Source of the DNA: Candidatus Daviesbacteria bacterium
GTDB taxonomy: Bacteria; Patescibacteriota; Microgenomatia; Daviesbacterales; UBA10151
Length of the DNA stretch: 64,000 nucleotides
NCBI GenBank assembly: GCA_016176335.1
Contig: JACOXI010000003.1
Location: forward strand, 194,477 to 258,476
Direction: 5' to 3'
This document shows, piece by piece, positions 29,274 to 44,132 of this stretch (position 1 is the first letter of the stretch; each line of letters begins with the position of its first letter). A program made the position numbers and the translations under genes. Under the pieces are notes generated by a model that saw only the letters and a program-made list of their open reading frames with translations, made no database searches and was not told the origin of the DNA.

Positions 29274-29310
29274 TGAATATCTTATAGTATTATGTGGTAT
29301 AATATAAATT

Positions 29311-31419
29311 ATGGCAAGACGTCGCTCTATTTATAAATTGCCCAAATTAAGATTGAAACAAAAAGCCATTACTGCTGTTGGAGCTTTGGTTGCTTTTGCT
29401 TTATCTATACTTTCTGCAGTTGCGCTAACAACCCATTCCCAAACTCTTGAGTTTTGGAGAAGCTTTTTAACAGATCTTTTCGGTTGGACGAAAATTTTCT
29501 CTCCTTTGGTCTTTTTAACTGCCGGATTTGTTTTAAGCCGAGCCAAATGGAAATTTGCACAAACTAATGTTTTGCTTGGTTTAATATTGATTATTTTATC
29601 TGCCGCCAGTTTGACTTCGCCCGTAAGATTTACAGAGGCCGGATTCTTGGGCCAAACAATTTGGACTCAACTTGAATCCTTTGTCACCAGGCCAGCTGCT
29701 GCGGGGCTTTTGATACTGGCGTTTTTGGTAGGATTGGTGGTTTTGTTTAATACATCCCTGGGCCAAATTTTTAAGATATTTGGCTTAATTTTTGAATTTT
29801 TAAACGGACAGATCATTAAACCGATCTTCCGAAGACCAAGAACTTTTGAGGCAAAGCATATTCCTATTAAGGTGTCAGGGTTGGATGAACGTTCTGCAGT
29901 CAGAGCACATCAGCCTCCTATTCAAAAAGAAAGTATTTTGGTAGATACGCTGGTGCAGAATGTGGCGGGTAAGGCTCAAGTTTGGAAATATCCTCCTTTA
30001 TCCGTGTTATCTGAAAAAGTTGGGTCAGCTGCGGATCGGGGAGATGTCAAGAGAAATGCGGATATTATTGAGAAAACTCTGGATTCGTTTGGGATCCAGG
30101 CAGATGTGGCAGAGGTTAATGGAGGTCCTGCCGTGACTCAATATGCATTAAAGATTTCAGCAGGGACCAAAATTTCCAAGATTGCCAATCTGCAACACGA
30201 TTTGGCTTTGGCTTTGGCAACACCAACTGGAACAGTGCGGATTGAAGCTCCAATTCCGGGAAAATCTTTGGTTGGGATTGAAGTGCCAAATAGATCTTTG
30301 GAGATAGTGGGGCTTAAAGGAATTTTGGGTTCGGATGAGATGGGTAAATACAAATCAAAATTAGCAGTTGCGCTGGGACGCGATACCTCCTCCAAACCGA
30401 TGATTGTTGATTTGGATAAGATGCCGCACGTTTTAGTGGCTGGTACCACCGGATCAGGAAAGTCAGTTCTTTTGAATGCAATTATTGGTTCTCTGCTTTT
30501 TAGAAACTCTCCGGATGAGTTAAAAATAATTATGATTGATCCAAAAAGGGTGGAGTTGACAAACTACAACGGCGTTCCCCACCTGCTAACACCGGTTATC
30601 ACGGAGCCGGAAAAGATCCTGTCATCTTTGAAATGGGCCATGGCTGAAATGGAAAGACGCTATAAATTATTCCAATCTGTGGGGGTCAGAAATATTAGCG
30701 GTTACAACGAACTGTCCGGCTTCCAGGCTTTACCTTATATTGTAATAATAGTTGATGAGTTGGCGGATTTGATGATGTTTGCGCCTGTGGAGATTGAGGA
30801 TGCAATTACCAGAATTGCCCAGCTTGCCAGAGCAACAGGTATGCATCTTGTGGTTGCCACACAAAGGCCTTCTGTTGATGTTATCACAGGTTTGATTAAA
30901 GCCAATATTCCTTGCAGGATCGCTTTTAATGTTTCTTCCATGGTGGATTCAAGGGTAATTTTGGATGGGCCGGGAGCGGAAAAATTATTAGGGCGCGGAG
31001 ATATGTTATTTTTACCTCCTGATGCTTCAAAACCCATGAGAATTCAAGGAGTTTTAGTGCAGGATGAAGAAATAAATAATTTAATAAAATATCTTAAGAA
31101 TACTGGCATTGCTCCGGAGTATACGGCCGAGGTGACAGAAATGCCTTTAGGCAGATGGGGTGGAAGAGGCGGGAGGGAAGGAGATCAGGATGAATTGTTC
31201 GAGGAGGCAGTCAGGACTGTTTGTCAATATGACAGGGCTTCTGCATCATTACTGCAAAGGAGACTTAAAGTCGGGTATGCAAGAGCTGCTAGAATTATCG
31301 ATGAGCTTGAGATGGCAGGGATTGTCGGGGTAGGCGAGGGTAGCAAGCCTAGGGATGTTTTAGTCAAAAATGCCGATGAATACTTTGCTGCCCAATCATC
31401 ATCTACCGGTGAGAGTTAA
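29311..31419 (+). CDS. ftsK: DNA translocase FtsK/SpoIIIE
   Basis: N-terminal TM segments; motor domain with VAGTTGSGKS Walker A and gamma domain. Confidence 0.9.
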   Translation: MARRRSIYKLPKLRLKQKAITAVGALVAFALSILSAVALTTHSQTLEFWRSFLTDLFGWTKIFSPLVFLTAGFVLSRAKWKFAQTNVLLGLILIILSAASLTSPVRFTEAGFLGQTIWTQLESFVTRPAAAGLLILAFLVGLVVLFNTSLGQIFKIFGLIFEFLNGQIIKPIFRRPRTFEAKHIPIKVSGLDERSAVRAHQPPIQKESILVDTLVQNVAGKAQVWKYPPLSVLSEKVGSAADRGDVKRNADIIEKTLDSFGIQADVAEVNGGPAVTQYALKISAGTKISKIANLQHDLALALATPTGTVRIEAPIPGKSLVGIEVPNRSLEIVGLKGILGSDEMGKYKSKLAVALGRDTSSKPMIVDLDKMPHVLVAGTTGSGKSVLLNAIIGSLLFRNSPDELKIIMIDPKRVELTNYNGVPHLLTPVITEPEKILSSLKWAMAEMERRYKLFQSVGVRNISGYNELSGFQALPYIVIIVDELADLMMFAPVEIEDAITRIAQLARATGMHLVVATQRPSVDVITGLIKANIPCRIAFNVSSMVDSRVILDGPGAEKLLGRGDMLFLPPDASKPMRIQGVLVQDEEINNLIKYLKNTGIAPEYTAEVTEMPLGRWGGRGGREGDQDELFEEAVRTVCQYDRASASLLQRRLKVGYARAARIIDELEMAGIVGVGEGSKPRDVLVKNADEYFAAQSSSTGES

Positions 31420-31462
31420 TTTCCTCTGGCAAGAAAACAATTAAAGAGCTAGAATTTCCTTC

Positions 31463-32023
31463 ATGGATAAAAATATCTCAGATCTTTTAACAAAGGGAGA
31501 AGTTGGAGTGATCCCTACAGATACTATTTATGGAATTGTCGGGTCTGCTTTAAATCAAGAGACTGTTGAAAGAATATACCAATTAAGGAAAAGGGCAGCT
31601 GATAAACCATTCATAATACTTATTCCATCCATTGAAGATTTGAAAAAGTTTGGGATTCAACTAACTGAAAAACAAAAAGAATTTTTGGAAAAAGTTTGGC
31701 CCAATCCTGTAAGTGTAATTTTGCCAGTTAAAAATGAGAAATTTAACTATCTTCACCGGGGTAAAAATTCTCTGGCATTCAGAATGCCTAAAAATGAGTG
31801 GCTTTTGGACATATTAAAAAGGGTTGGGCCATTAGTTGCACCAAGTGCTAACATTGAAGGACAAAAACCATCTGAAACTATTGATAATGCAAAACAATAT
31901 TTTGGTGACAATGTTGATTTTTATATGGATGGGGATAGAATAGAATCTCAACCGTCAACGCTGATACAACTTACAAGTTACGGTTCATATAATATTTTAA
32001 GACAGGGGACTTTTCAGTTATGA
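31463..32023 (+). CDS. tsaC: L-threonylcarbamoyladenylate synthase (YrdC/TsaC domain)
   Basis: VIPTDTIYGIVGSA ... KPFIILI motifs of YrdC family; 186 aa single domain. Confidence 0.8.
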   Translation: MDKNISDLLTKGEVGVIPTDTIYGIVGSALNQETVERIYQLRKRAADKPFIILIPSIEDLKKFGIQLTEKQKEFLEKVWPNPVSVILPVKNEKFNYLHRGKNSLAFRMPKNEWLLDILKRVGPLVAPSANIEGQKPSETIDNAKQYFGDNVDFYMDGDRIESQPSTLIQLTSYGSYNILRQGTFQL

Positions 32024-32658
32024 GAACTGTCGGACAAGTTTTGAAAGAAGAAAGAGAGAAAAAATTTTATACTCTTGAAGAGGTTGAAAAAGCTACCAAG
32101 ATAAGAAGAGAACTTCTGGAAGCTTTGGAAAGAGGTGAGTATCAAAGACTTCCACCACCAACTTTTATTCAAGGATTTATTAAAAATTACGGTAAATTTT
32201 TGAAATTGGACTCCGTCAAACTTTTGGCAATTTTCAGAAGAGAATTTTCCGATCAAAAACACCCCCCCAAAATTTTGGATTCTTTTTCAAACCCGGTTGA
32301 AAGAGGAAAATTTAAAATAACCCCGGCAAAATTTTTGGCTACCCTAGTTTTAGGATTGGTGATAGTTTTTTTTGCGTACCTTTGGTTTGAATATAGATTT
32401 TTAGTAGGAGCTCCTTTTTTGGAAGTGACAACACCAACTGATCAGATAAGCACGTCAATTTCAAAAGTGCAAGTTTCAGGAAGAACCGAACCTGAAGCAA
32501 AAGTAAAAATTAATGATCAAGAAATTCTGGTTGATCTTTCCGGTAGATTTGTTCAGGAGATTACATTGACAGAAAATGTCAATAATTTGGTTATAACAGC
32601 AACGTCGAAAAGCGGGAAGGTAACTAAGATAGAAAGAACTGTTTTTTTAAGGCAATAA
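32020..32658 (+). CDS. rodZ: RodZ-like cytoskeletal protein (XRE-type HTH + TM + C-terminal domain)
   Basis: N-terminal HTH (TLEEVEKATKIRRELLEALERGEY), single TM, periplasmic C-terminal domain. Confidence 0.6.
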   Translation: MRTVGQVLKEEREKKFYTLEEVEKATKIRRELLEALERGEYQRLPPPTFIQGFIKNYGKFLKLDSVKLLAIFRREFSDQKHPPKILDSFSNPVERGKFKITPAKFLATLVLGLVIVFFAYLWFEYRFLVGAPFLEVTTPTDQISTSISKVQVSGRTEPEAKVKINDQEILVDLSGRFVQEITLTENVNNLVITATSKSGKVTKIERTVFLRQ

Positions 32659-32670
32659 TTGGTATAGTGT

Positions 32671-32973
32671 TTGACACCTATGGATTTTTTGCAAATAGCT
32701 CTAATATTTTTAATGCTTTTACTTTCGGTTTTTCTGACAATTACTGGCATCCAGGTATTTTTTATTTTAAGAGATTTAAAAAAAGCTTTGGATAGATTAA
32801 ATAGAGTGTTGCAAACTGGGGAGGAAATTGCCGAAGATTTGGAAAAACCTGTGGCGGCCGCATCCGGGTTGATTACCACTTTGGGAGCTGGAGCTAAGGC
32901 TTTGAGGAATGTGGTTAAAAGAGAAAAGAAAAAAGTCCCTAATAACCGCAGGTTCTACAAAAAAGTTCTTTAA
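32671..32973 (+). CDS. small membrane protein, DUF948-like
   Basis: N-terminal TM helix then coiled-coil/charged region; resembles DUF948 general stress proteins. Confidence 0.4.
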   Translation: MTPMDFLQIALIFLMLLLSVFLTITGIQVFFILRDLKKALDRLNRVLQTGEEIAEDLEKPVAAASGLITTLGAGAKALRNVVKREKKKVPNNRRFYKKVL

Positions 32974-33001
32974 GCTATAATCCGACACTTCTTGTAACGC
33001 G

Positions 33002-34906
33002 TTGCGTTATAATACCCTCATGGATTCGAAAACTTTAAGAGAGAAATTTCTAAAATTCTTTGAGAATAATGGTCATACCATTATTCCCTCTGCTCCATTG
33101 GTACCATCGGATGAAGAACAATTAGTTGGTAAAGAGAGAGTTTTATTCACTGGTGCAGGCATGCAGCCCCTGATTCCTTACCTTATGGGTAAACTACATC
33201 CAAAAGGAAATAAATTGGCCGATGTGCAAAAGTGTGTAAGAACTGATGATATTGAACAAGTTGGAGATGCAACTCACCATACTTTTTTTGAAATGTTAGG
33301 GAACTGGTCATTAGGAGACTACTGGAAAGATGAAGCAATAAAATTATCGTTTGAATTTTTAACTAAAGAATTGGAAATTCCAATAGAAAAATTAGCAATA
33401 TCTGTTTTTGCTGGAGATGATGATGCGCCTCGTGATGAAGAATCTGTAAAGAAATGGAGAGAACTAGGAATCCCAGAAAAAAGAATTGCTTATTTAGGAA
33501 AAGAAGCAAATTGGTGGCCTACTGGTGAAAAATCAGGTCCATGTGGTCCTGATACGGAAATGTTTATTTGGACAGGAGAAGGTTCCGCGCCAGAAGAATT
33601 TGATCCCAAAAATCCAAAATGGGTAGAGGTTTGGAATGATGTGTTTATGGAATTTAATAGAAAAGAAGATGGAACTTTAGAGGATTTACCACAAAAAAAT
33701 GTAGATACTGGAATGGGGTTGGAGAGAATGTTGGCAGTAATAAATGGTAAAGATAATGATTATCAAACAGATCTTTTTTTAAGTGTAATCAATAATCTTG
33801 AATTATTTTCGGGATACAAATATGGAGAAAATACTGAAGTTGATCAGGCATTTAGAATAATTGCAGACCACATGAAGGCGGCAACCTTCTTAATAAAAGA
33901 TGAAGTTTTACCAAATAATAAATTACAGGGGTATGTATTACGTAGACTGATTAGAAGGGCGGCGGTAAAAAGCAAAAGATACTTCAAATATGACTTAAAT
34001 TTATTAGCGAATCTCTCGAGTAAAATTGTTGCTTTTTACCATGATACTACTGATTATTTTGAATACCAAGATTTAATTAAAATACATAGTATTATATTTC
34101 AAGAGGTCAAAAAGTTTGAGGAATCATTAAGTGCTGGTTTAAGAGAAATAGATAGGCGACTTAATAAATATGATACTCAAGGGGGATGGTTAGATTCTCC
34201 TGAAAATGCAGCAAAATTCGCCTTTGATTTGTATCAGACATATGGATTACCTATGGATGCGTATTTTGATGATGTACTTAAAAAATTTGGTATCGCATAT
34301 GCATGGGGGCAAAAAGAAGACTTATATAAGGAATTTGAAAAATTAAGAAATGAGCATGCAGATCTTTCTAGAAATACTTCTGCCGGAATGTTTAAAGGAG
34401 GACTTGCTGATCATTCGGAAGTTGTTACCAAATATCACACTGCTACTCATCTTTTGCATCAGGCTTTAAGAGACGTATTAGGTCCTGAAGTTTTTCAAAA
34501 GGGATCTAATATAACTAGTGAAAGATTAAGGTTTGATTTTTCTTATGATAAAAAAATGACAGATGATGAGATTAAAAAAACAGAAGATATTATTAACAAA
34601 AGAATTGATGAGGATTTAAAGGTTGACCACATGATTATCCCGCTTGACGAAGCAAAAAAGATGAATGCCATCGGGCTTTTTGATGAAAAGTATGCAGACA
34701 AAGTAAGTATTTATGGTGTCGGCCTTGGCTACGGAATAGATTCACAGGCCAAAGACCAAAGAGATAGAGGTGGGTATTATTCTTTGGAATTTTGTGGTGG
34801 TCCCCATGTGGAGCAAACAGGAACAATTGGAAAAATTAAAATTACCAAAGAAGAAGCAATATCTGCAGGCATTCGCCGAATCAGAGCCCAGATTGTTTCT
34901 TCTTAG
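33002..34906 (+). CDS. alaS: alanine--tRNA ligase, short form lacking C-terminal C-Ala domain (634 aa)
   Basis: Class II AlaRS catalytic motifs (FTGAGMQP, WSLGDYWK, GPCGPDTE) and editing-domain His/Cys motifs (HTATHLLH, CGGPHV). True start may be MDSKTL at 33020. Confidence 0.9.
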   Translation: MRYNTLMDSKTLREKFLKFFENNGHTIIPSAPLVPSDEEQLVGKERVLFTGAGMQPLIPYLMGKLHPKGNKLADVQKCVRTDDIEQVGDATHHTFFEMLGNWSLGDYWKDEAIKLSFEFLTKELEIPIEKLAISVFAGDDDAPRDEESVKKWRELGIPEKRIAYLGKEANWWPTGEKSGPCGPDTEMFIWTGEGSAPEEFDPKNPKWVEVWNDVFMEFNRKEDGTLEDLPQKNVDTGMGLERMLAVINGKDNDYQTDLFLSVINNLELFSGYKYGENTEVDQAFRIIADHMKAATFLIKDEVLPNNKLQGYVLRRLIRRAAVKSKRYFKYDLNLLANLSSKIVAFYHDTTDYFEYQDLIKIHSIIFQEVKKFEESLSAGLREIDRRLNKYDTQGGWLDSPENAAKFAFDLYQTYGLPMDAYFDDVLKKFGIAYAWGQKEDLYKEFEKLRNEHADLSRNTSAGMFKGGLADHSEVVTKYHTATHLLHQALRDVLGPEVFQKGSNITSERLRFDFSYDKKMTDDEIKKTEDIINKRIDEDLKVDHMIIPLDEAKKMNAIGLFDEKYADKVSIYGVGLGYGIDSQAKDQRDRGGYYSLEFCGGPHVEQTGTIGKIKITKEEAISAGIRRIRAQIVSS

Positions 34907-34952
34907 GTCATTCCCCGAAGTGCCAATATGTGCTAAGATAACTTTATTCCAT

Positions 34953-37130
34953 ATGAGTTTTTTTGATAGAATTTCTGCTTCAATACCCTTTGGAAAACAA
35001 AAAGAACAACTTGAGTACTATTTTGCCTTGAACATTTCCTTTGAAAGATTAACAGCTGCCCTTTGGACAATTGAAGGAAAAGAATTAAAAATTTTGGATA
35101 CTGCGGATAAATCATACTCCGGAACAGAGCAGATCACACTTGTTGCCGACTCTCTTTTGGATTCGGTTATAGGAACAAAACAGATTGAACCACAAAAAAT
35201 CCTTTTTGGAGTACCCCATTCCTGGCTTGCTGACGATAATTTAAAAGATGAATATTTAAAACTGTTAAGAGGATTAGTCAAGGAATTGGAGCTTACCCCT
35301 ATGGCTTATGTTGCTACAACTTCCGCCATAAACCATCTTTTGGAAACACAAGACGGGATCCCCCAAACAGCGATTTTGATTGGATTTGAAAGAAAGCATC
35401 TGACTGTTACGGTTGTAAGAGCTGGCAAGATTGATGGGGTGAAAATTTTGGAAAGAGGTGATAATTGCGGTGCGGATATAGAAAAAGCACTGCTGACTTT
35501 TACGGACATTGAAACCCTTCCATCAAAAATTTTACTTTTTGGTTTAGATCGGGAAGATCTGGAAAAATTAAAAGGTCAGCTTTTGTCTTTTGCTTGGATG
35601 GCAAAACTGTCTTTTTTACACTTTCCTAAAATAGAAATTCTGCAGGATTCTTTGGAGATAAAAAGTGTTTGTCTGGCCGGAGCAACAGAGCTACAAACTC
35701 ATGTTATCTTCAAAGATAAACTGCTTCAAAAAATTCAAGAAGCAACAATAGAACCTAAAGAGAGATTAGAGAAAGAGACGCCGGAAGGTGACAATTTCGG
35801 ATTTGTTTTGGGGGATGTATCTAAACAAGTTCAAATTAAGGAAGTGGAACGCAAAGAATCACCAGAGGAGGGATTAGATGGGGAAGGTTCAGGGAGCAGT
35901 ATGGAAATTGATGATTTTGAGCCACAAGAAGTTTTATCAGCACAACCTTCTATTTTGGATAAATTTAAACTGACAGTATTGAAAAAATTCATTCCCAAAA
36001 GGAATTATATAGTACACACAATTCTGTTAGGTTTAATTGGGGTGACTGTTGTTTTAGTTGGTGCATATATTCTGCTGGTTAAGGTACAAGTTAAAGTTTT
36101 TGTTGAGCCAAGAATTTTAGAGAAAAATGCTCAAGTTGTTGCTGATCCAAAACAAAAGGAGGTTTTGGAAGATGCAAGGATAATCCCGGGTCAGATCATT
36201 GCAACAGAAGTTTCCGGAACTGCTAAGGATAGTGCCACCGGCAAAAGACAAATTGGGGACCCTGCCAGGGGAACGGTGATCATTAGAAATAAAACTGATG
36301 CAAGTGTAACTTTATCAAAAGGAACAGTTTTTGCTGCTAACAATCAAAGATTTAATTTGGATGTTTCAGTCACTATTGCTTCACGTTCTGCTGATGATGG
36401 AACTTGGGGCCGAGCCAATAGAGAAGTGACTGCCCAAGCAATTGGGGCAGATGGTAATTTGCCATCTGGTACTGATTTAACAATTTCAGGTCACCTAACA
36501 GATCAATTAATTGCTAAATCAGAAGGTAATTTCTCCGGCGGGACTTCTAAAGAAGTGACTGTTGTGTCAAGTGAGGATCAAAAAAGACTTCTGGCGTCTT
36601 TAGCATCAACCTTGCGGAAACAGGCTCAACAAAAGCTACAAGGAGAATTACCAGAGAAAAAGATTTTAGAGGAAGCTTTATCAGAACAAATTTTAAGGAA
36701 AGATTATAACAAAAATGTTAATGATCAAGCCAATGAGTTTTCACTTAATATGGCAACAAGGTTTAAGGGTACGGCCTTTGAAGAAAAGGATTTGAAAAGA
36801 ATTGTTGGGAAACTTGTCACAACCGAGGTTCCGCCAGGCTATGAGTTGAATTTGCAGGATACGGAAACGCAAGCAGATGTTGCCAAACTTGAAACTGATG
36901 GAAGATTGATATTTTTGGCAAAATTTAGAGCAAAAGTTTTGCCTAAACTTGATAAAGACTGGATTAAAAATCAAATAAAAGGGAAAACTATAAATGAAGC
37001 GGCAGCAAGACTTAAAAGCATGGAAAATGTGTTAGGATCCGAGTTTCAAATGAAACCTGCCTTACCAAGTTTCTTGCAGCGTTTGCCGATTCTTTCTCAC
37101 AATATGGAGGTTGAGGTAGGTTTGAAATGA
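34953..37130 (+). CDS. hypothetical bitopic membrane protein: PilM/FtsA-like (degenerate actin-fold) N-domain, central TM, large extracytoplasmic C-domain
   Basis: Start trimmed to MSFFDRIS. N-terminal ~330 aa resemble PilM/FtsA but lack the DxG phosphate motif; TM at IVHTILLGLIGVTVVLVGAYILLV; C-terminal ~330 aa unknown. Could be a PilM-PilN/O-type fusion. Confidence 0.45.
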   Translation: MSFFDRISASIPFGKQKEQLEYYFALNISFERLTAALWTIEGKELKILDTADKSYSGTEQITLVADSLLDSVIGTKQIEPQKILFGVPHSWLADDNLKDEYLKLLRGLVKELELTPMAYVATTSAINHLLETQDGIPQTAILIGFERKHLTVTVVRAGKIDGVKILERGDNCGADIEKALLTFTDIETLPSKILLFGLDREDLEKLKGQLLSFAWMAKLSFLHFPKIEILQDSLEIKSVCLAGATELQTHVIFKDKLLQKIQEATIEPKERLEKETPEGDNFGFVLGDVSKQVQIKEVERKESPEEGLDGEGSGSSMEIDDFEPQEVLSAQPSILDKFKLTVLKKFIPKRNYIVHTILLGLIGVTVVLVGAYILLVKVQVKVFVEPRILEKNAQVVADPKQKEVLEDARIIPGQIIATEVSGTAKDSATGKRQIGDPARGTVIIRNKTDASVTLSKGTVFAANNQRFNLDVSVTIASRSADDGTWGRANREVTAQAIGADGNLPSGTDLTISGHLTDQLIAKSEGNFSGGTSKEVTVVSSEDQKRLLASLASTLRKQAQQKLQGELPEKKILEEALSEQILRKDYNKNVNDQANEFSLNMATRFKGTAFEEKDLKRIVGKLVTTEVPPGYELNLQDTETQADVAKLETDGRLIFLAKFRAKVLPKLDKDWIKNQIKGKTINEAAARLKSMENVLGSEFQMKPALPSFLQRLPILSHNMEVEVGLK

Positions 37131-37768
37131 TTACCATACCGAAGATAATATCGTTAAGTTTTCTTTTTCTTGGAGTGTTTATTTTAATACAAGTTGTCAT
37201 GCCGATTGTGTCTTTTGAAGTTTGGGAATTAGGTCAAAAATTTGATAAGGAAACTACTCTGATCAGCCCGCAAAAAGGACAATCGGTATTAGGTGTGTCA
37301 ATTGAAAGCAAGGATAATTTTCCTGCCTTTGTATCCAGTGTAAAAAGAGAAATAGCCCCTTCCTACACACAGTTTAGGATAAATGTTCCAAAATTACAGC
37401 TTTCTGAAATTACGGTTGATGTAGATAGTAATGATTTGACTCGCGGGTTGGTACATCTTCCAGGTTCTGCTTTGCCCGGAGAGAGGGGGAATGTTTTTAT
37501 TTCCGGTCACTCTGCCGTAAGTCCCCTGATTTCTTTGAAGACTGCTTTTTTTGGTAAACTTCAGGATTTAAAAAAGGCAGATAAAATTATTGTTGAGGCG
37601 GAAGGGACAAAATTTACCTATCAAGTTATTGATGTTAGGGCGGTCAACCCGAACGATACCTCGGTCATCAAGCCTCCTGATAAAATGGGAAGGTATATAA
37701 CTTTGATGACTTGTGTTCCTCCAGGGTTAAATTTCAAAAGACTAGTGGTTTTAGGTAAAATTATTTGA
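37127..37768 (+). CDS. sortase family transpeptidase
   Basis: N-terminal TM anchor; GNVFISGHS (His) and ITLMTCVPPG (TLxTC Cys) sortase motifs. Confidence 0.75.
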   Translation: MITIPKIISLSFLFLGVFILIQVVMPIVSFEVWELGQKFDKETTLISPQKGQSVLGVSIESKDNFPAFVSSVKREIAPSYTQFRINVPKLQLSEITVDVDSNDLTRGLVHLPGSALPGERGNVFISGHSAVSPLISLKTAFFGKLQDLKKADKIIVEAEGTKFTYQVIDVRAVNPNDTSVIKPPDKMGRYITLMTCVPPGLNFKRLVVLGKII

Positions 37769-37771
37769 TTC

Positions 37772-38149
37772 ATGAGATATTTAGGAATAGATTTTGGGTT
37801 AAAGAAAATTGGCCTTGCAATTTCGGAAGGAGAACTAGCTGCCCCACTGAAAGTTTTAGAAGCTTCTAATTTTCAAGACGCCTTCAGTAAAATAAAAAAA
37901 GAGGCAGCGGATTTTGATAAAGTTATTATTGGAAAACCCGAAGGGAAAGTGGGCAAAAAAGTTACGAAACTTGTCAGTCTCTTAAAGAAAGAAAGTATGG
38001 ATATAGAGGAGTGGGATGAGACTTTGTCAAGCCAGAAAGCTATGGCATATATGATCCAATCCGGATTAGGAAAAAACAAAAGGAAGATAACGGATGCATA
38101 TTCTGCAGCGATCATTTTACAGGAATATTTGGATGAGAAAAAACATTAA
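37772..38149 (+). CDS. ruvX: Holliday-junction resolvase-like / pre-16S rRNA nuclease YqgF (RuvX)
   Basis: MRYLGIDFGLKKIGLAIS N-terminus typical of YqgF; 125 aa. Confidence 0.85.
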   Translation: MRYLGIDFGLKKIGLAISEGELAAPLKVLEASNFQDAFSKIKKEAADFDKVIIGKPEGKVGKKVTKLVSLLKKESMDIEEWDETLSSQKAMAYMIQSGLGKNKRKITDAYSAAIILQEYLDEKKH

Positions 38150-38155
38150 GATACT

Positions 38156-39112
38156 ATGAAAAAAATAATTGGATCAGCTGTTTTGGTTATCTTGGCAGTA
38201 TTTTTAATTCGTGGTTTTTGGGATAGTCAACTTACTCCCGTGTCATCGGAGAAAGAGACTAAATCTTTTGTAATTACAAAGGGTGGGAGTTTTTCGGAAG
38301 TTTCCAAGAAATTATCGGATGAAGGTTTGATTAAGTCTTCATTTTTCTTTACTTTTTTTGCTAAACAATCAGGTCTTTCGGATAAAATCCAGTCCGGTAC
38401 TTTTAAATTATCTCCCTCAATGTCTGCAGAGGAAATCTTAAAAACAATCACAGGTAATCCTGTAGACGATTGGGTGACCTTGCTTGAAGGATGGAGAATT
38501 GAGGAAATGGCAGAGAAACTCAATTCAGAATTCAGAATTCAGAATTCAGAATTTTTGAAAATTGCCAAGGAAGGATATATGTTTCCTGATACCTATTTGT
38601 TCCCAAAAGATTATTCGGCGGAGCAGATTGCAAAAATTATGATGGATAATTTTGAGAAAAAATATACAGAAGCGCTGCGGACAAAAATTAAGTCTTTGGG
38701 ACTATCTGAAGATCAAGGAGTCATATTGGCATCAATAGTGGAAAGAGAAGCGAGGTCGTATGAGGCAAGAAGGATGGTTGCAAGTATTCTTTTAAAAAGA
38801 CTAAAAATTGGTATGGGGCTTAATGCCGATGCAACAGTACAATATGCCACAGGTTACCAGCCCCAAGAAAAAAGCTGGTGGAAAAGACATTTAACAAAAG
38901 AAGATTTAAGGGTGGAATCACATTACAATACTTATATTTATTCCGGTTTACCGCCGACACCTATTGCAAACCCGTCTTTATCATCTCTTCAGGCAGTTGC
39001 GGATGCAGATTTGTCAATACCGTATCTTTATTATTATCACGATTCAAAAGGCAATTCATATTATGCTAAAACCTTGGATGAACACAACCAAAATATTGCA
39101 AATAACCCCTGA
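38156..39112 (+). CDS. mltG: endolytic murein transglycosylase MltG (YceG-like)
   Basis: N-terminal TM, YceG domain; conserved alaS-ruvX-mltG neighbourhood. Confidence 0.85.
   Translation: MKKIIGSAVLVILAVFLIRGFWDSQLTPVSSEKETKSFVITKGGSFSEVSKKLSDEGLIKSSFFFTFFAKQSGLSDKIQSGTFKLSPSMSAEEILKTITGNPVDDWVTLLEGWRIEEMAEKLNSEFRIQNSEFLKIAKEGYMFPDTYLFPKDYSAEQIAKIMMDNFEKKYTEALRTKIKSLGLSEDQGVILASIVEREARSYEARRMVASILLKRLKIGMGLNADATVQYATGYQPQEKSWWKRHLTKEDLRVESHYNTYIYSGLPPTPIANPSLSSLQAVADADLSIPYLYYYHDSKGNSYYAKTLDEHNQNIANNP
38522..38549. repeat. tandem heptamer repeat (AATTCAG)x4 inside the mltG coding region
   Basis: Read directly; encodes NSEFRIQNSEF. The unit is not a multiple of 3, so a copy-number change would frameshift mltG. 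Confidence 0.85.
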
Positions 39113-40263
39113 TGAATAAAAAAATTCTATATCTCCTGGCTTTTTTGATAAAAGGGTGGGAAGTATCCTTACTTTTGGTTTTGCCTATTTTACAAACACA
39201 AGGCAGAATAAATTTATTTGAATTGGGAATACTTGCCGCAACTTTTTCCATTTTTCAAATAATCACATCTCTTTTCTCTGGACACTTGGCGGAAAAATTT
39301 AGTAATAAAAGAGTAATGACTGCTGCTATATTTTTTTATGGTTTAGCCTGGCTTGTTCTTGCTACACCGATCAGTTTTATCTCTCTTTTGGTAGTGTGTT
39401 GTTTAGGAGGGATAGCCACAGGGTCGTTTATACCCCTTGCCAATTCCCAAATTGCGAAAATTGCCAACCAAAACAGAGCCAAAGAATTTGGGGACTTTAG
39501 TGCTTTTTCTGACATTGGGAGGGTAGTTTTGGTAAGCATCACAACTTTTTTGATAGGCAATGTCAGTTTATTTACCACCTCTTTAGTGTTTGCTGTTTTG
39601 GGGATTATTTCAACAGCAATCCTTGCTAAAGTGACGATTTTAAATTTTAAGGAGGAAGACTCATTGAAAAATTTACAAGCTGTCAGGTTACACCACTTAT
39701 TAAAAAATAAACGATTTATTTTTGCGGTTTTAACAGGCATGTTTGATGTATTTGCAAGTGCGTCACTTTTTATTTTCATCCCGCTGCTTTTGATACCAAA
39801 AGGGATTGATATTTCATCAGTTGGGTTTTTGAGCGCTCTATTTTTTGCAGGGTATCTTTTTGGAAGAGTCTTATTAGGGAGAATGGCAGATCAATTCGGA
39901 GATGTTAATATTTTGGTGATAGCACAAATTTTTATGGCAGTTTTGATTGTATGCCTTATATTTATAAACAATTTGATTCTGGTATCTACAATACTTTTTG
40001 TATTAGGTGTGTTTACAAGAGGAACCTCACCTGTGATTCGTGCTATGATGGCAAACGCTGTTTCCGAAAAGCATAAGTTCGATAAGGCTTTTAGTATTCA
40101 TTCTTTTTCCCTAAATACCGCAAATGTTACCAGCAGATCTGTTTATGGTTTTTCTGCAGGCATTTTTGGGATTGCCAGTGTTTTTTATTTATCGGCGCTT
40201 GTTGCATTGGCAACTTTAGTACCGCTGTACCTTTATCAAAGGTCCAAAGATCAAGGAGTCTGA
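39112..40263 (+). CDS. MFS transporter
   Basis: 383 aa, about 12 TM helices. Confidence 0.65.
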   Translation: MNKKILYLLAFLIKGWEVSLLLVLPILQTQGRINLFELGILAATFSIFQIITSLFSGHLAEKFSNKRVMTAAIFFYGLAWLVLATPISFISLLVVCCLGGIATGSFIPLANSQIAKIANQNRAKEFGDFSAFSDIGRVVLVSITTFLIGNVSLFTTSLVFAVLGIISTAILAKVTILNFKEEDSLKNLQAVRLHHLLKNKRFIFAVLTGMFDVFASASLFIFIPLLLIPKGIDISSVGFLSALFFAGYLFGRVLLGRMADQFGDVNILVIAQIFMAVLIVCLIFINNLILVSTILFVLGVFTRGTSPVIRAMMANAVSEKHKFDKAFSIHSFSLNTANVTSRSVYGFSAGIFGIASVFYLSALVALATLVPLYLYQRSKDQGV

Positions 40264-40264
40264 A

Positions 40265-40660
40265 ATGTATGAGCAGGGCTTGCGACTTCGTCTAAAATTC
40301 TGGGGGAAAGTAAGAAAAGCAAATCTTAGAGGGAAAAAGTTGGGATTTCCTACTGCCAATATGAATTTATCTAGAAAAATACCTGAAGGGATCTATATTT
40401 CTAAAGCTAGAATAGCTGGGGTAGAATATAAATCACTGACCTTTATAGGTGAGGCCAAAACATTTGGCGAAAAAAAATTCCAAGCAGAAACATACATTTT
40501 GAATTTTAGTAGAAATCTATATGATAAATGGATTACAGTAGAACTTTTCAAAAAGATTCGTGGTAATAAAAAATTTAAATCAGCTAAAGACTTGGTAGAG
40601 CAGATGAAGGAAGACGAGAGAAAAGCAAGAGATTTTTTTTACCTCTTGACGAAGAGGTAA
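40265..40660 (+). CDS. riboflavin kinase domain protein (RibF C-terminal-like, standalone)
   Basis: GKKLGFPTANM (GxPTAN) and downstream E..Y motif of riboflavin kinase; no FAD-synthetase N-domain. Confidence 0.65.
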   Translation: MYEQGLRLRLKFWGKVRKANLRGKKLGFPTANMNLSRKIPEGIYISKARIAGVEYKSLTFIGEAKTFGEKKFQAETYILNFSRNLYDKWITVELFKKIRGNKKFKSAKDLVEQMKEDERKARDFFYLLTKR

Positions 40661-40790
40661 GATTTGTGCTATCTTATAAATAATTAAATAAGAAATATCA
40701 GAGGCGTACGGGAACGTATGCTTCATTTCGTTGATTCGCTAATACAGAAGGATATTATCGAGCAAAGCTGTCCAAATAGGCCATCTACTA

Positions 40791-43700
40791 ATGTCTTTAC
40801 AAGCTTTTGAATTAAATCAAACCCGTAAGTCGTGGAGCAAAGCATCTGCCTTGACCCCGGAGCTCAACCTAATAAAAATTCAACTTGATTCTTACAAATG
40901 GTTTCTCACTGATGGTATAAAGGAAGTATTAGAAGAAATAACCCCGGTTGAGGATTTTACAGGCAAAAATTGGTCTTTGGAACTCGGGTCATATTCATTT
41001 GGTAAGTCAAAATACACTCCGGAGCTTGCCAAGATGAAGGGAGTAACTTTCGATGCGCCTCTTAAGATAGAGGCCATTTTAATAAATAAACAAACAGGAA
41101 AAAGGACCAAACAGGAAGTGTTTTTAGGTGACATCCCCCAAATGACAGAGAAGGGAACTTTTATTATAAACGGGGTTGAAAGAGTGATCATTAATCAATT
41201 GGTTCGTTCCCCTGGAGTGTTTTTTTCGGCAGCGGACGACCCCATTACAGGAAGAAGGCTTTACTCTGCAGAAATTAGGCCATATAGAGGTTCTTGGTTA
41301 GAATTTTCAATATCCAGAACCGGTGTGTTAACAGCCAAAATTGACAGAAGAAGAAAATTTGCGGCAACCACCTTGCTTCGCGCCTTGGGTTTTTCCGAGT
41401 CCGAAACCATCATTGAACTGTTCAGCGATGTGGATACCGCGGAGGATAAACGTATCGAGACAACGCTGTCGAAAGACCCAACACAAAACAGCGATGAGGC
41501 ACTGCTGGAGATTTTTAGAAAGATGCGGCCCGGGGATCCTGTAGTTTTGGATAATGCCAAAAGCTTACTGGACGGGATGTTTTTCAACTCCAGGCGCTAC
41601 AATTTAACCAGAGTAGGACGCTACAAAATAAATAAAAGATTAGCATTAGATACCCCAAATAGTGCGGACAATTGGATTCTGACGAATAACGATATTGTAG
41701 CCACCTTAAAATACCTGATAAAACTTTCAAATGGTTTGGGGAAAGTAGATGATATAGATCATTTAGCCAACAGAAGAGTTAAGTGTGCGGGAGAACTGGT
41801 ACAACAAAATGCCTTCAGAATTGGAGTATTAAGGTTAGAACGAATTATCAAAGAAAGAATGAGCCTGACTGCGGCAGATCAGGAACCTACTCCCGGCAGT
41901 TTAATCAATGCCAAGCCTGTGATTGCAGCAGTCAATGAGTTTTTCCGTTCATCTCAACTTTCTTCTATCTTGGATCAGGTTAACCCTTTGTCAGAATTGG
42001 ATCATTTAAGAAGATTGTCTGTTATGGGTGTAGGAGGAATCACCAGAGATCGGGCTTCCTTTTCGGTTCGTGATATAAATCATTCCCAATACGGCAGAAT
42101 TGATCCAATCCGCTCTCCCGAAGGACAAAATATCGGTTTGGTCACTTATCTTGCTTTATACGCTAGGATAAACGAATATGGGTTTTTGGAAACGCCTTAC
42201 AGAAAGGTTGTTTTAGAGCGCGGAAAGCCTCGGATAACCAATACAATAATCTATCTTACGGCTGACGATGAAGAGGATTATCATATTACGGAAGCAACTG
42301 TTAATGTTGATCCAAAAGGCAATATTGTAGATGATCGAGTTCCAACTAGATTCCAAGGAAGTTTTTTTGAGGGCGAATCAAAGCAAATTTCTTTAATTGA
42401 TATCTCACCGCAGCAAATTTTTGGCACATCGGCAGCATTGATCCCCTTTTTGGCAAATGATGATGCAAACAGGGCTTTGATGGGAACTCAAATGCAATGT
42501 CAGGCCGTACCTTTGCTTATCCCTTCCGCTCCAATCGTAGGTACTGGTATGGAAAGGATTGTTGCGGATAACATGGGAAGAGTAGTAAGAGCTCCTGAAG
42601 ATGGAGTTGTTATATCTGTTGATGGTGAAAAACTGATCTTAAAGGGTAAAAGGCAGGAATATAAATTTGAGATTAAAAAGTTTATTCATTCACCTCAAGG
42701 AACCTGTTATTCGCAAAGGCCCGTTGCCAAACTAGGACAAAAAGTTAAAAAAGAAGATCTCTTGATTGATGGCGTTGCAACACAAAACGGAGAATTGGCT
42801 TTGGGTCAAAATCTTTTGATTGCTTATATGAGTTTTGAAGGGTTGGGTTATGAGGATGCAATAGTTATTTCCGACAAACTTGTCAAAGAAGATCTTTTGA
42901 CCTCAATCCATATTGAAGAATATGAAGTTGATGTTGTGGAAACGAAATTAGGATTGGAGGAGTTAACCCGCGACATTCCCAACGTGTCTGAAGATGCGTT
43001 GAGAAATTTGGATGAAAAAGGGATTGTCAGAATTGGTGCCGAAGTTGGGCCAAACGATATTTTGGTTGGCAAAGTTCAACCAAAAGGCGAGACGGAGTTA
43101 ACTGCCGAGGAAAGACTGCTTAGGGCAATATTTGGAGAAAAAGCAAAGGAAGTTCGCGACACGTCTTTAAGGGTTCCACACGGTGAGCGGGGGACAGTAA
43201 TCGGGGTGCAGATACTCTCACGCGACGAAGGAGATGAGTTGGATACCGGGACGCTGATGAGAATTAAAGTCAAGGTGGCACAGATGAGAAAAGTGACCGA
43301 AGGGGATAAGTTGGCAGGAAGACATGGGAACAAAGGGGTTATTTCAAAGATTGTTCCAGTATCGGACATGCCTCATTTGGAAGATGGGACACCGGTTGAT
43401 ATTATTATTTCTCCCTTGTCTGTGTTATCCCGTATGAATTTGGGTCAGCTTTTGGAAACCCACTGGGGTTTTGCCGCACAAAAATTGGGTTATAAAATTG
43501 CCGCTCCTGTTTTTGAGAAGATGCCGGAGGATATGTTAATTATCGAGTTTAGAAAAGCAGGACTTCCGGTTGACGGGAAGGTCAGACTTATTGACGGAAG
43601 AAACGGAGAGCCGTTTGATAACACAATTGTTGTCGGAAGAAATTATATTTTAAAGCTGATCCACATGGTTGAGGAAAAAATTCATGCCCGCTCTACAGGA

Positions 43701-44132
43701 CCATATTCCTTGGTTACTCAACAACCTTTGGGAGGCAAAGCTCAAATGGGTGGACAAAGGTTGGGAGAGATGGAAGTTTGGGCTTTGGAAGCGTATGGCG
43801 CTGCCCATATCCTACAGGAAATGTTAACTATCAAATCAGATGATGTGGTGGGCCGAGCTAAAGCTTTCGAGGCAATTGTCAAGGGGATTGATATACCTCA
43901 AGCGTTGGTTCCCGAATCATTTAAGGTTTTAGTAAAAGAATTGCAGGCTTTAGGGTTGTCAGTTGAGACTTTGGGAGCAAAAATAGTGCAAGTGCCTGAA
44001 GTTGAAGAAAAAGCGGAAGTTTTACGTGAGGTAGCTCAAATGGAACAAGTTTTAGAAGCAAAGCCTTTGGCCACCGAAGGTGAGTTGGAAGCGGAAGGCA
44101 GCCCGTTTGAGGTGGTTGATGCGAAGGAGTAA
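40791..44132 (+). CDS. rpoB: DNA-directed RNA polymerase subunit beta
   Basis: 1113 aa; conserved beta-subunit blocks and the signature residue motifs of beta regions. Confidence 0.97.
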   Translation: MSLQAFELNQTRKSWSKASALTPELNLIKIQLDSYKWFLTDGIKEVLEEITPVEDFTGKNWSLELGSYSFGKSKYTPELAKMKGVTFDAPLKIEAILINKQTGKRTKQEVFLGDIPQMTEKGTFIINGVERVIINQLVRSPGVFFSAADDPITGRRLYSAEIRPYRGSWLEFSISRTGVLTAKIDRRRKFAATTLLRALGFSESETIIELFSDVDTAEDKRIETTLSKDPTQNSDEALLEIFRKMRPGDPVVLDNAKSLLDGMFFNSRRYNLTRVGRYKINKRLALDTPNSADNWILTNNDIVATLKYLIKLSNGLGKVDDIDHLANRRVKCAGELVQQNAFRIGVLRLERIIKERMSLTAADQEPTPGSLINAKPVIAAVNEFFRSSQLSSILDQVNPLSELDHLRRLSVMGVGGITRDRASFSVRDINHSQYGRIDPIRSPEGQNIGLVTYLALYARINEYGFLETPYRKVVLERGKPRITNTIIYLTADDEEDYHITEATVNVDPKGNIVDDRVPTRFQGSFFEGESKQISLIDISPQQIFGTSAALIPFLANDDANRALMGTQMQCQAVPLLIPSAPIVGTGMERIVADNMGRVVRAPEDGVVISVDGEKLILKGKRQEYKFEIKKFIHSPQGTCYSQRPVAKLGQKVKKEDLLIDGVATQNGELALGQNLLIAYMSFEGLGYEDAIVISDKLVKEDLLTSIHIEEYEVDVVETKLGLEELTRDIPNVSEDALRNLDEKGIVRIGAEVGPNDILVGKVQPKGETELTAEERLLRAIFGEKAKEVRDTSLRVPHGERGTVIGVQILSRDEGDELDTGTLMRIKVKVAQMRKVTEGDKLAGRHGNKGVISKIVPVSDMPHLEDGTPVDIIISPLSVLSRMNLGQLLETHWGFAAQKLGYKIAAPVFEKMPEDMLIIEFRKAGLPVDGKVRLIDGRNGEPFDNTIVVGRNYILKLIHMVEEKIHARSTGPYSLVTQQPLGGKAQMGGQRLGEMEVWALEAYGAAHILQEMLTIKSDDVVGRAKAFEAIVKGIDIPQALVPESFKVLVKELQALGLSVETLGAKIVQVPEVEEKAEVLREVAQMEQVLEAKPLATEGELEAEGSPFEVVDAKE

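Follow-up and report, generated by a model that had tools for sequence, protein, structure and literature searches.

Which function is served by the two same-strand open reading frames that occupy positions 34953-37768 of the window, the 64-kb stretch of Candidatus Daviesbacteria DNA analyzed here? The frames are flanked by alaS on one side and by ruvX-mltG on the other. The first one encodes a membrane protein, referred to as X in the following, and the second one a sortase (Table 1). A sequence-only reading had already placed the pair within the alaS-ruvX-mltG block, and both the ORF coordinates and the family matches of the flanking genes agree with this placement. The length of 726 aa given there for X has to be corrected, as the ORF 34953-37130 encodes 725 aa. 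Its start codon, ATG at 34953, is backed by a 100% identical 725-aa NCBI protein from Ca. Daviesbacteria and by full-length homologues. This identical protein carries the name "baseplate J/gp47 family protein". The genes of X and the sortase overlap in an ATGA (GGTTTGAAATGATT) with GGAGG upstream. Promoter and terminator scans of the window gave results no better than those for shuffled sequence; the first strong terminators are located past ribF at 40637-40724.

Table 1. Features of the X-sortase locus, with positions in the window, strand and evidence.
Feature	Position	Strand	Evidence
alaS, short-form alanine-tRNA ligase, 634 aa	33002..34906	+	NF002436 7e-200; PF01411 1.8e-114
X, bitopic membrane protein, 725 aa	34953..37130	+	ORF; identical NCBI protein; AF2 models
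Parts of X, N to C: ASKHA domain, linker, TM helix, baseplate-J-like ectodomain	within 34953..37130	+	
Minimal ASKHA (actin-fold) domain, predicted cytoplasmic, X residues ~18-250	35004..35702	+	AF2 pLDDT 72-90, Foldseek
Linker, disordered, acidic, length-variable, predicted cytoplasmic, X residues 256-351	35718..36005	+	pLDDT <50; low conservation, many gaps
Linker motif G283-F-V-L-G-D-V289 of X	35799..35819	+	conserved in alignment
Single TM helix of X, residues 352-376 (YIVHTILLGLIGVTVVLVGAYILLV), predicted N-in/C-out	36006..36080	+	model helix 352-375
Extracytoplasmic baseplate-J/gp47-like domain (predicted), X residues 376-725	36078..37127	+	AF2 pLDDT 90.5, PF04865, Foldseek
Sortase, membrane-anchored, 213 aa, translationally coupled to X	37127..37768	+	PF04203 3.3e-23
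ruvX (yqgF)	37772..38149	+	PF03652 8.9e-23; TIGR00250
mltG (yceG), endolytic transglycosylase	38156..39112	+	PF02618 5.4e-78; TIGR00247

The N-terminal domain of X was modelled by AF2 as a structure of ~230 residues consisting of only two beta-beta-beta-alpha-beta-alpha-beta-alpha lobes. A Foldseek search with this model revealed Ppx/GppA, PilM 5eou (TMt 0.51), 3hrg (0.56) and YeaZ (0.53). The PilM structures 5eou, 5eoy and 3jc8_Ma were matched with E-values of ~5e-8 to 4e-7 and TMt values of 0.38-0.51. Ppx/GppA, BT_3980 (3hrg), YeaZ, EutJ and CoaX fitted about as well as PilM, with an identity of ~10%. The resemblance to PilM/FtsA proposed from the sequence thus holds for the actin (ASKHA) fold, but it does not extend to the hallmarks of these two families. 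The 1C-type extra subdomain of PilM/FtsA (protein of ~350 aa in total) is absent from the model, which leaves no room for it. None of 34 X-family members matched PilM_2 or FtsA of Pfam at E <= 1 or showed a match to SHS2_FTSA, and no Pfam family at all was matched by the N-terminal domain in these members. An NCBIfam scan of X returned no family. The consensus of the domain shows FFALxI in the first strand and TAILxGxxx in the strand of lobe 2, and in the alignment of the 34 members no conserved Asp or Gly was found at the phosphate-1 or phosphate-2 positions. Both the alignment, without a conserved Asp, and the model confirmed that the DxG phosphate-binding motif is missing, as had been noted before. 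The N-terminal domain of X is a dead actin-like fold which has lost its nucleotide-binding motifs, and we infer that X contains no enzymatic site.

The ASKHA domain carries no signal peptide in its sequence. It is attached to the membrane by a true transmembrane helix followed by 350 aa, in contrast to the C-terminal amphipathic helix of FtsA. Six Lys/Arg residues (K337, K339, K344, K345, K349 and R350) are found within the 15 residues preceding the helix. The single transmembrane helix was correctly recognized in the sequence-only reading; the ectodomain that follows comprises ~350 aa instead of the ~330 aa assumed there. Within the linker one short motif, GFVxGD, stands out from unconserved surroundings. 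Its residues G283, F284 and D288 are conserved to 80-90% in the 34 sequences, at identities down to 28%. Judged by this conservation pattern, GFVxGD is a candidate partner-binding peptide.

The ectodomain of X was matched to phage proteins over almost its entire length. In Foldseek the phi812 protein 9euf_I aligned with an E-value of 7.9e-7 over 339/347 columns, and 7kh1_A5, 8kea_d, 9ki1_H/O and 8v3w_0 were also found. The wedge proteins of phages and contractile injection systems (CIS) matched in this way include those of XM1, A-1(L), Mu (gp47) and the diffocin triplex. A search of BFVD resulted in 39 matches at E <= 1e-3, of which the named ones were mostly baseplate J or wedge proteins, while many were unnamed. 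At the sequence level PF04865 matched X of the window marginally (21.4 bits; gathering cut-off 21.1), and it matched 25 of the 34 family members with a best E-value of 2.1e-8. A PDB profile search with X yielded diffocin TRI-2 as the sole match (E 0.01), and a single-sequence search against PDB chains gave nothing significant. The TM-scores between the ectodomain and J proteins are low (~0.23), because the predicted orientations of the sub-domains differ. Homology was judged by probability, E-value, full-length alignment order and Pfam. By these measures the modelled ectodomain of X shows itself to be a complete homologue of the baseplate wedge protein J/gp47. It is rich in invariant Gly, Asn and Pro residues and conserved at a housekeeping-like rate. 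The sequence-only reading had instead compared the ectodomain with PilN/PilO, and this assignment has to be abandoned. The best 50 PDB and BFVD matches consisted of baseplate J proteins and the GlxA barrel, and none of them was PilN, PilO or GspM with their ferredoxin-like alpha-beta-beta repeats. Taken as modelled, the architecture of ASKHA domain, tether, transmembrane helix and J-like ectodomain can be regarded as secure with high confidence.

The partner of X was examined in the same way. The sortase reached 67.4 bits with TIGR01076 (cut-off 39.35), and the NCBIfam models of classes C, E, D and F gave 20-72 bits at cut-offs of 140-166, so that no class-specific model was reached. His128 (FISGHS), Cys196 (TLMTC) and Arg205 are conserved to >=90% in 66 orthologues. 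Together with the PF04203 match this verified the earlier assignment of an adjacent sortase with His and Cys motifs, which is catalytically intact as far as the His, Cys and Arg motifs tell. No further sortase was found within 5-6 kb of X in the loci examined. Sortase substrates were defined by an LPXTG-like motif, a C-terminal transmembrane helix and a basic tail. The 64-kb window contained no convincing substrate, only two spurious antisense ORFs, and ~1 Mb of related loci contained none apart from a single unconvincing match. X itself is an unlikely substrate, since its conserved C-terminal "LPxxLxxLP...NIxIEV" is built into the fold as a strand of the final sub-domain, with no transmembrane tail behind it; a sorting signal was not found in X.

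How widespread is this arrangement? The X family comprises at least 7,535 clusters at 50% identity for E <= 1e-3 and at least 1,775 such clusters with the fixed architecture for E <= 1e-30, mostly of 700-800 aa. Both the ASKHA and the J-like domain were present in all 380 full-length members examined. Gene order was compared in 87 sequences, i.e., 86 related loci and the window. The order X-sortase-ruvX was observed in 67 of them, including the most distant ones with 27-34% identity, and the stop and start codons of X and sortase overlap in 44 of these 67. Both the family members and this gene order were found in Daviesbacteria, Amesbacteria, Gottesmanbacteria and Woesebacteria. Among 20 distant family members, the one whose cluster bears a taxon name belongs to Amesbacteria. 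The rates at which the sequences of X and sortase diverge are the same. The neighbours of X across the 86 loci are alaS, sortase, ruvX, mltG and rpoB. The gene alaS lies 5' of X in most of them and is inverted or separated in some; ruvX directly follows the sortase or, where the latter is missing, X itself. In other lineages a 66-aa zinc-ribbon-like ORF is located between ruvX and mltG, which offers no clue to X.

Loci without an adjacent sortase are confined to two clades, which implies two events. In one clade of 10 species X is directly followed by ruvX and no sortase occurs within 5 kb; therefore X does not require an adjacent sortase. In the clade that has lost its linkage to ruvX, the genes after X encode a PMT_2 GT-C glycosyltransferase and a GDSL esterase. 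From RNase J to rpoB the core genome forms a frozen backbone, where synteny extends to unrelated genes such as alaS and ruvX, and adjacency alone is consequently weak evidence for a link between X and the sortase. The sequence-only reading had described the pair as inserted into alaS-ruvX-mltG. Since the same arrangement is found throughout the Microgenomates relatives, the two genes are an ancestral part of the core genome and were not acquired locally. As a sign against its own model that reading had named a universal insertion in relatives combined with an annotation for cell division; the arrangement is indeed lineage-wide, but neither gene is annotated for cell division. X is a core, vertically inherited gene of the whole Microgenomates lineage. 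No description of the X family was found in the literature on baseplate J or sortase in CPR/Patescibacteria/Microgenomates or in the Southlakia Tn-seq paper.

What does such a protein do? X is probably a scaffold of the cell envelope and not part of a pilus. A scaffold role near the envelope is suggested by the envelope-themed neighbours, namely mltG, the RodZ-like gene, the PMT_2 glycosyltransferase and the GDSL esterase. More specifically, and with rather less than even confidence, we propose that X is a non-enzymatic trans-membrane scaffold for sortase-linked assembly of the cell envelope. The known task of the J module of baseplate wedges is to oligomerize into wedge and ring assemblies. 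If the ectodomain of X oligomerizes as well, a platform would arise at the outer surface of the membrane, near nascent peptidoglycan. This platform may hold the sortase, its substrates or its products in place for assembly of the cell surface and cell wall. Through the tethered pseudo-actin domain and the linker peptide, the platform would be connected to a partner in the cytoplasm, much as GspL or PilM-PilN link periplasmic to cytoplasmic parts. In this form the earlier idea that X and the sortase constitute a surface-assembly module is plausible. A bolder version is unlikely. X could be the core of a new envelope machine of the Microgenomates, in which a domesticated or ancestral wedge module forms a ring or platform outside the membrane and, with its dedicated sortase, builds or anchors a surface structure (e.g., for host attachment) under cytoplasmic control by the nucleotide-free actin-fold domain and the linker peptide. 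If true, the J/gp6/TssF fold would for the first time be seen in a cellular, extracytoplasmic role.

Other explanations were weighed against the envelope scaffold. The sequence-only reading had likened X to a fused PilM-PilN/PilO alignment complex, which would make it a subcomplex of a type IV pilus or of a similar fibre machine. The occurrence of PilM 5eou among the ASKHA matches is in line with this model, as are the layout of ASKHA domain, transmembrane helix and ectodomain, which parallels PilM plus PilN as well as GspL, and a weak PilN Pfam match (0.0058) in just 1 of the 34 family members. However, X has neither a PilM_2 match nor the extra PilM/FtsA subdomain, its ectodomain is J-like with PilN, PilO and GspM absent from the best 50 matches, and the gene calls of five loci show no pilB, pilC, pilT or pilD in the vicinity of X. 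Canonical pilM (with pilN/O in TM7x) is located in separate T4P loci of Microgenomates and Saccharibacteria (PMC7143001, PMC11623550). Thus, the pilus-alignment model is largely refuted, and we consider it quite improbable. The database name suggests that X was left behind by a prophage or contractile injection system, in agreement with the PF04865 match and the likeness in fold to phage wedge proteins. This origin is hardly credible for a gene that keeps its fixed place within a housekeeping operon in four candidate phyla, whose GC content matches that of its surroundings and whose fusion to a transmembrane helix and an ASKHA domain moves the J-like part to the cell exterior, where no baseplate could be assembled. 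Genes for gp25/W, gp7/I, hub, tube and sheath were absent from the 64-kb window and from the called genes of the five loci. Altogether, LPXTG substrates, type IV pilus genes and other baseplate genes were not found near X in the window and the loci read.

A function in cell division or elongation has somewhat more in its favour, although we still regard it as unlikely. The pseudo-actin domain of X would bind FtsZ, FtsA or MreB in the manner of ZipA/FtsA, the ectodomain would communicate with peptidoglycan enzymes such as MltG, and the sortase would be incidental. The layout of X, in which a long flexible tether with a conserved peptide joins the globular cytoplasmic domain to the membrane, fits this picture, and so does the persisting adjacency of X to ruvX-mltG where the sortase is absent. 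The neighbourhood of X in the window moreover includes ftsK and a RodZ-like HTH_25-TM gene besides mltG, but unrelated housekeeping genes are found there too. No FtsA, SHS2 or ZipA signal was detected in the sequences of the 34 members, ftsZ/ftsA adjoined X in none of the loci read, ftsZ was missing from both window and loci, and the J-like fold is not known to act in peptidoglycan synthesis. Slightly less likely than such a tether is a sortase-independent surface receptor, adhesin or host-interaction protein of presumed epibionts, with a binding J-like ectodomain, a signalling cytoplasmic domain and a merely historical synteny. The ectodomain is predicted to be large, confidently folded and extracellular, and gene order in the block is kept for functionally unrelated genes as well. 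Host-interaction proteins, however, usually diversify fast, whereas the ectodomain of X is conserved like a housekeeping protein with its many invariant residues. The widespread translational coupling of X and sortase also argues for co-function. A receptor or adhesin is in keeping with the abundance of surface proteins that Patescibacteria need for epibiosis (PMC10633639, PMC11665869).

The envelope scaffold is of interest beyond this locus. Microgenomates form a large uncultivated part of the Patescibacteria in which envelope building is almost unknown, and the X-sortase pair, which is conserved at a housekeeping rate across four candidate phyla or more, is a concrete candidate for an envelope function specific to this lineage. 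To our knowledge the J/gp47 fold is known only from contractile injection machines; in X, according to the models, it is placed on the outer face of the cell membrane. The database name "baseplate J/gp47 family protein" is therefore misleading for X, as it hints at a prophage and could cause the gene to be miscounted as viral.

Several known systems share single features with X. Minimal ASKHA proteins of the TsaB/YeaZ and BT_3980 type correspond to its N-terminal domain in size (~220-260 aa), in the two-lobed core without accessory subdomains and in the lack of a canonical nucleotide site, and they are among the highest target-normalized TM-scores obtained for it (0.47-0.56). In contrast to X they are soluble cytoplasmic proteins, their identity to X is ~10-12%, and nothing links X to TsaD pairing or tRNA modification. 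Housekeeping sortases of monoderms (classes A and E) resemble the partner of X in the N-terminal anchor, the His-Cys-Arg triad and the TLxTC motif, and both belong to the core genome rather than to a pilus island. The X-associated sortase differs from them in reaching no class-specific NCBIfam cut-off, and translational coupling to an ASKHA/baseplate-J membrane protein is not known to us from any other sortase.

In GspL (T2SS) and PilM-PilN (T4P), as in X, an actin-fold cytoplasmic scaffold is joined, directly or via a bound peptide, to a single-pass transmembrane segment and an extracytoplasmic domain. The GspL-type bitopic architecture, i.e., a nucleotide-free actin-like domain, one transmembrane helix and an ectodomain, is thus present in X, by analogy only. 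PilM is bound by the N-terminal peptide of PilN, and the conserved short peptide near the ASKHA domain of X is reminiscent of it. However, X shows no match to these sequence families; GspL/EpsL was not among the 50 PDB matches listed for its N-terminal domain. Its ASKHA domain is a bare 230-aa core, and its ectodomain is baseplate-J-like whereas the periplasmic fold of GspL, PilN and PilO is ferredoxin-like. Secretion or pilus ATPases do not accompany X in the loci read, and the secretion genes gspE, gspF and gspM were not found near X in related loci; X resides instead in a housekeeping operon together with a sortase. The closest relatives of the ectodomain remain the proteins of the baseplate J/Mu gp47/T4 gp6/diffocin TRI-2/T6SS TssF group (PF04865), which its 350 aa match over approximately the whole length by Foldseek and with which it has a conserved N-L-P...G-G-T region in common (Pfam, diffocin TRI-2 profile match). 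Proteins of the baseplate J type are built into their assemblies in the cytoplasm, together with gp7/I, gp25/W and the tail hub. The J-like part of X, in contrast, is a solitary domain without partner baseplate genes, tethered outside the membrane as modelled, fused to an actin fold and vertically inherited.

The interval that a sequence-only reading had described as a fused PilM-PilN/PilO-like protein and a sortase inserted between alaS and ruvX consists of two ORFs on the same strand. They encode a membrane protein, here called X, and the sortase. The ATG at 34953 was assigned as the start of X, because all homologues begin at the MSF... methionine and because a 100% identical 725-aa protein, named 'baseplate J/gp47 family protein', is present at NCBI on a 456-kb Candidatus Daviesbacteria contig. 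A longer form starting with GTG at 34770 was unsupported and would overlap alaS. The X and sortase genes overlap in an ATGA, and a GGAGG lies 10-20 nt 5' of the sortase start. Family matches confirmed the flanking genes alaS, ruvX and mltG, whose synteny is common to Firmicutes such as Bacillus. Farther upstream lie RNase J, ftsK, a Sua5/YrdC gene, the RodZ-like HTH_25-TM-Ig gene and a small TM protein; mltG is followed by an MFS transporter, a flavokinase-only ribF and rpoB/rpoC. The GC content is even throughout the region around X, and strong terminator-like hairpins were found only after ribF. The remaining 64-kb window is housekeeping (murJ, lepA, dnaK/dnaJ/grpE/hrcA, nusA, infB, pnp, fusA, tuf, ribosomal proteins).

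Nearly every real gene of the window (1-64000) is on the plus strand, and a GC-skew profile of 28000-44000 is strongly positive throughout, at 0.07-0.28 per kb. For a complete Microgenomates genome, a comparable strand bias has been reported (PMC7143001). Among the few minus-strand genes is one between fusA and tuf whose product contains only the RelA/SpoT synthetase region; it looks like a small-alarmone-synthetase-type gene. The short alaS (NF002436/PRK01584 type, E = 7e-200) ends just past the tRNA_SAD editing-associated domain; the standard 847-position model (TIGR00344) continues in a long C-terminal region that is missing here. The ribF-like gene lacks the FAD-synthetase half. Four ORFs gave no Pfam match even at E <= 0.1, and two of these, those of 457 and 243 aa, overlap head to tail and may form an operon.

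Features of the window and of related loci (L numbers)
Sequence	Coordinates	Strand	Feature
Window	9085-9732	-	ORF without Pfam match, 215 aa
Window	9971-11344		ORF without Pfam match, 457 aa
Window	11334-12065		ORF without Pfam match, 243 aa
Window	16637-18610		657-aa protein, trypsin-like (HtrA/Trypsin_2) domain at residues 384-546 only, 380-aa N-terminal part unannotated
Window	22420-23463		ORF without Pfam match, 347 aa
Window	32020-32658		RodZ-like gene: HTH_25, TM helix, Glucodextran_B/Ig-like ectodomain
Window	32671-32973		conserved, family-less 100-aa single-TM protein, directly after RodZ-like gene
Window	33002-34906	+	alaS, short form, 634 aa, upstream neighbour of X
Window	34953-37130	+	X, 725 aa
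Window	37127-37768	+	sortase, 213 aa
Window	37772-38149	+	ruvX, downstream of sortase
Window	38156-39112	+	mltG, downstream of ruvX
Window	40265-40660		ribF-like, flavokinase domain only (131 aa, PF01687)
Window	52326-53483	-	RelA/SpoT synthetase region (PF04607), 385 aa
L059	7184-10083		PMT_2 GT-C glycosyltransferase and GDSL esterase after X, replacing sortase-ruvX-mltG
L064	7201-9500		as L059
L083	9308-9508		65-66-aa ORF
L084	9611-9811		65-66-aa ORF
L085	9464-9664		65-66-aa ORF
L086	10577-10774		65-66-aa ORF

All statements on structure refer to AlphaFold2 models, that of X being based on 32 homologues. The N-terminal domain of X (residues about 18-250) was modelled confidently (pLDDT 72-90) and has exactly two beta-beta-beta-alpha-beta-alpha-beta-alpha lobes; then come an unstructured segment (256-351, pLDDT below 50), a helix (352-375) and a mostly beta C-terminal region. 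Foldseek comparison with the PDB placed the N-domain in the ASKHA (actin/Hsp70/sugar-kinase) superfamily, with matches to Ppx/GppA phosphatases, PilM (5eou, TMt 0.51), BT_3980 (3hrg, 0.56), YeaZ (0.53), EutJ (0.51), CoaX and FtsA (E 1e-8 to 1e-6, identity about 10%). Thus, the actin-like fold proposed earlier was correct, but PilM/FtsA are not singled out, because many ASKHA families match at similar E-values and identity. PilM and FtsA possess an extra subdomain, whereas the N-domain of X is a bare 230-residue core; none of 34 X family members matched PilM_2, FtsA or other ASKHA Pfam families, even at E <= 1. The family consensus reads FFALxI... at the phosphate-1 and TAILxGxxx at the phosphate-2 position, with no conserved Asp at either, in agreement with the suggestion that the domain is probably non-catalytic. 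The linker is acidic, length-variable and unconserved apart from one short island, G283-F-V-x-G-D288, which keeps 80-90% conservation in a set reaching down to 28% overall identity and looks like a candidate partner-binding peptide. Six Lys/Arg in 15 positions precede the hydrophobic segment (352-376), and a signal peptide is absent from X. Consequently, the N-terminus is predicted to be inside and the C-terminal 350 residues outside.

For this ectodomain, Pfam Baseplate_J (PF04865) scored 21.4 bits on the window protein, narrowly above the gathering score of 21.1, and matched 25 of 34 diverse family members (best 2.1e-8). The sole match in a profile search of PDB sequences was the diffocin triplex protein TRI-2 (E = 0.01), at the conserved N-L-P...G-G-T region. 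A separate model of residues 376-725 was very confident (pLDDT 90.5). Its Foldseek matches in the PDB were J/gp47/gp6-type wedge proteins of phi812, XM1, cyanophage A-1(L), Mu, diffocin, 7-7-1, phiCD508, Pa193 and E217, together with the GlxA beta-barrel domain; in a viral structure library (E <= 1e-3) the named matches were mostly baseplate J or wedge proteins, and many matches were nameless. The wedge alignments covered about 340 columns, the full length of query and targets, yet the TM-scores were low (about 0.23); locally, stretches of 105 columns superposed at 3-4 Å with 16-24% identity. We read the modelled ectodomain as the same succession of sub-domains as in the wedge proteins, oriented differently to one another. 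PilN, PilO and GspM were not among its structure matches, and a weak PilN Pfam match in one family member (0.0058) was insufficient. The ectodomain of X is baseplate-J-like and not, as had been postulated, PilN/PilO-like; by sequence and fold it belongs to the Baseplate_J homology family.

The sortase carries an N-terminal membrane anchor and a Pfam sortase domain (3e-23), and His128, Cys196 (TLMTC) and Arg205 are conserved in 66 orthologues. It passed the general sortase model and failed all class C, D, E and F models. Neither in the window nor in related loci totalling about 1 Mb did any protein, X included, show a C-terminal sorting signal.

Among 1.84 billion cluster representatives, a profile search with X found 7,535 clusters at E <= 1e-3, of which 1,775 reached E <= 1e-30. 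The best 150 are nearly all 700-800 aa with end-to-end matches, and both domains were present in all 380 full-length members compared. Members that carry a taxon name belong to Daviesbacteria, Amesbacteria, Gottesmanbacteria, Woesebacteria or unclassified Microgenomates/Patescibacteria. In loci from 80 species-representative genomes and six further contigs, X lies in one common block (ftsK, RodZ-like gene, alaS, X, sortase, ruvX, mltG, rpoB). In Gottesmanbacteria two genes separate alaS from X while X-sortase-ruvX is unbroken; this trio is therefore the tightest unit. Both genes are present in 67 loci; the X stop overlaps the sortase start in 44 of them and is separated from it by a gap <= 30 nt in a further 7. 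Where rpoB identity is about 62%, that of X, the sortase, ruvX, mltG and the RodZ-like gene has in each case dropped to about 27-47%; X evolves at the pace of its housekeeping envelope neighbours. Loci without an adjoining sortase form just two clades of the X tree. In one (ten species) X is directly followed by ruvX-mltG, in the other (five species) by a PMT_2 (GT-C) glycosyltransferase, fused in L059 to a MecA_N/NTF2-like domain, and a GDSL esterase, which is another envelope-related context. Thus, the X-sortase adjacency is ancestral and was broken only twice in the sample, and X does persist in two clades without this neighbour.

The RodZ-like gene and the 100-aa TM protein are syntenic with alaS-X throughout Microgenomates. 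A conserved ORF of 65-66 aa lies between ruvX and mltG in Amesbacteria, Woesebacteria and Gottesmanbacteria and is absent from the Daviesbacteria window; three copies scanned (L083-L085) gave weak zinc-ribbon/A24_N-type matches only. Many GTDB representative MAGs with the X locus (L003, L005, L009 and others) are titled 'uncultured Gammaproteobacteria bacterium' in ENA, which looks like a systematic mislabel of a submission batch.

In the models, X has an actin-fold domain with a degenerate nucleotide site, joined by a flexible tether that bears a conserved peptide to a TM helix and an extracellular J-type domain, and gene order points to long-standing co-transcription and co-translation with a sortase of intact catalytic residues, in a core operon with an envelope flavour. 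In contractile systems, J/gp6/TssF modules serve the oligomerisation of wedges and rings. X would be a scaffold rather than an enzyme: its J-type module, tethered outside the membrane, could form a platform placing the sortase or substrates near nascent peptidoglycan, and the cytoplasmic domain and linker peptide would tie this platform to a partner inside the cell, a role that GspL and PilM-PilN play in their own machines. For X as a whole we hold this platform to be a tentative though serious possibility.

A division or elongation tether working with MltG and RodZ, whose genes share the block, is unlikely. More doubtful still is a surface protein independent of the sortase. The part in a PilMNO-like pilus envisaged from the sequence is very improbable. 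A complete Microgenomates genome was reported to contain 'a sortase' and a separate single-locus T4P system including PilM (PMC7143001), and Saccharibacteria keep pilM/N/O within T4P loci (PMC11623550); with PilM residing in separate loci, X is unlikely to be a T4P alignment protein, and its ectodomain matches point elsewhere. X also fails the functional definition of Baseplate_J, because no partner baseplate genes were found in the gene contexts compared and the compartment is wrong; a phage or CIS remnant is hardly conceivable. The probability left over belongs to functions outside those listed.

No paper describing the X family was found in the literature searched, and databases name its members 'hypothetical' or 'baseplate J/gp47 family protein'. 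We class X among the bitopic scaffolds with an actin fold, its ectodomain and partner being without precedent. The chance that it stands for a new type of envelope machine is modest. X is like GspL and PilM-PilN in layout but differs from them in sequence family, extra subdomain, ectodomain fold and gene context.
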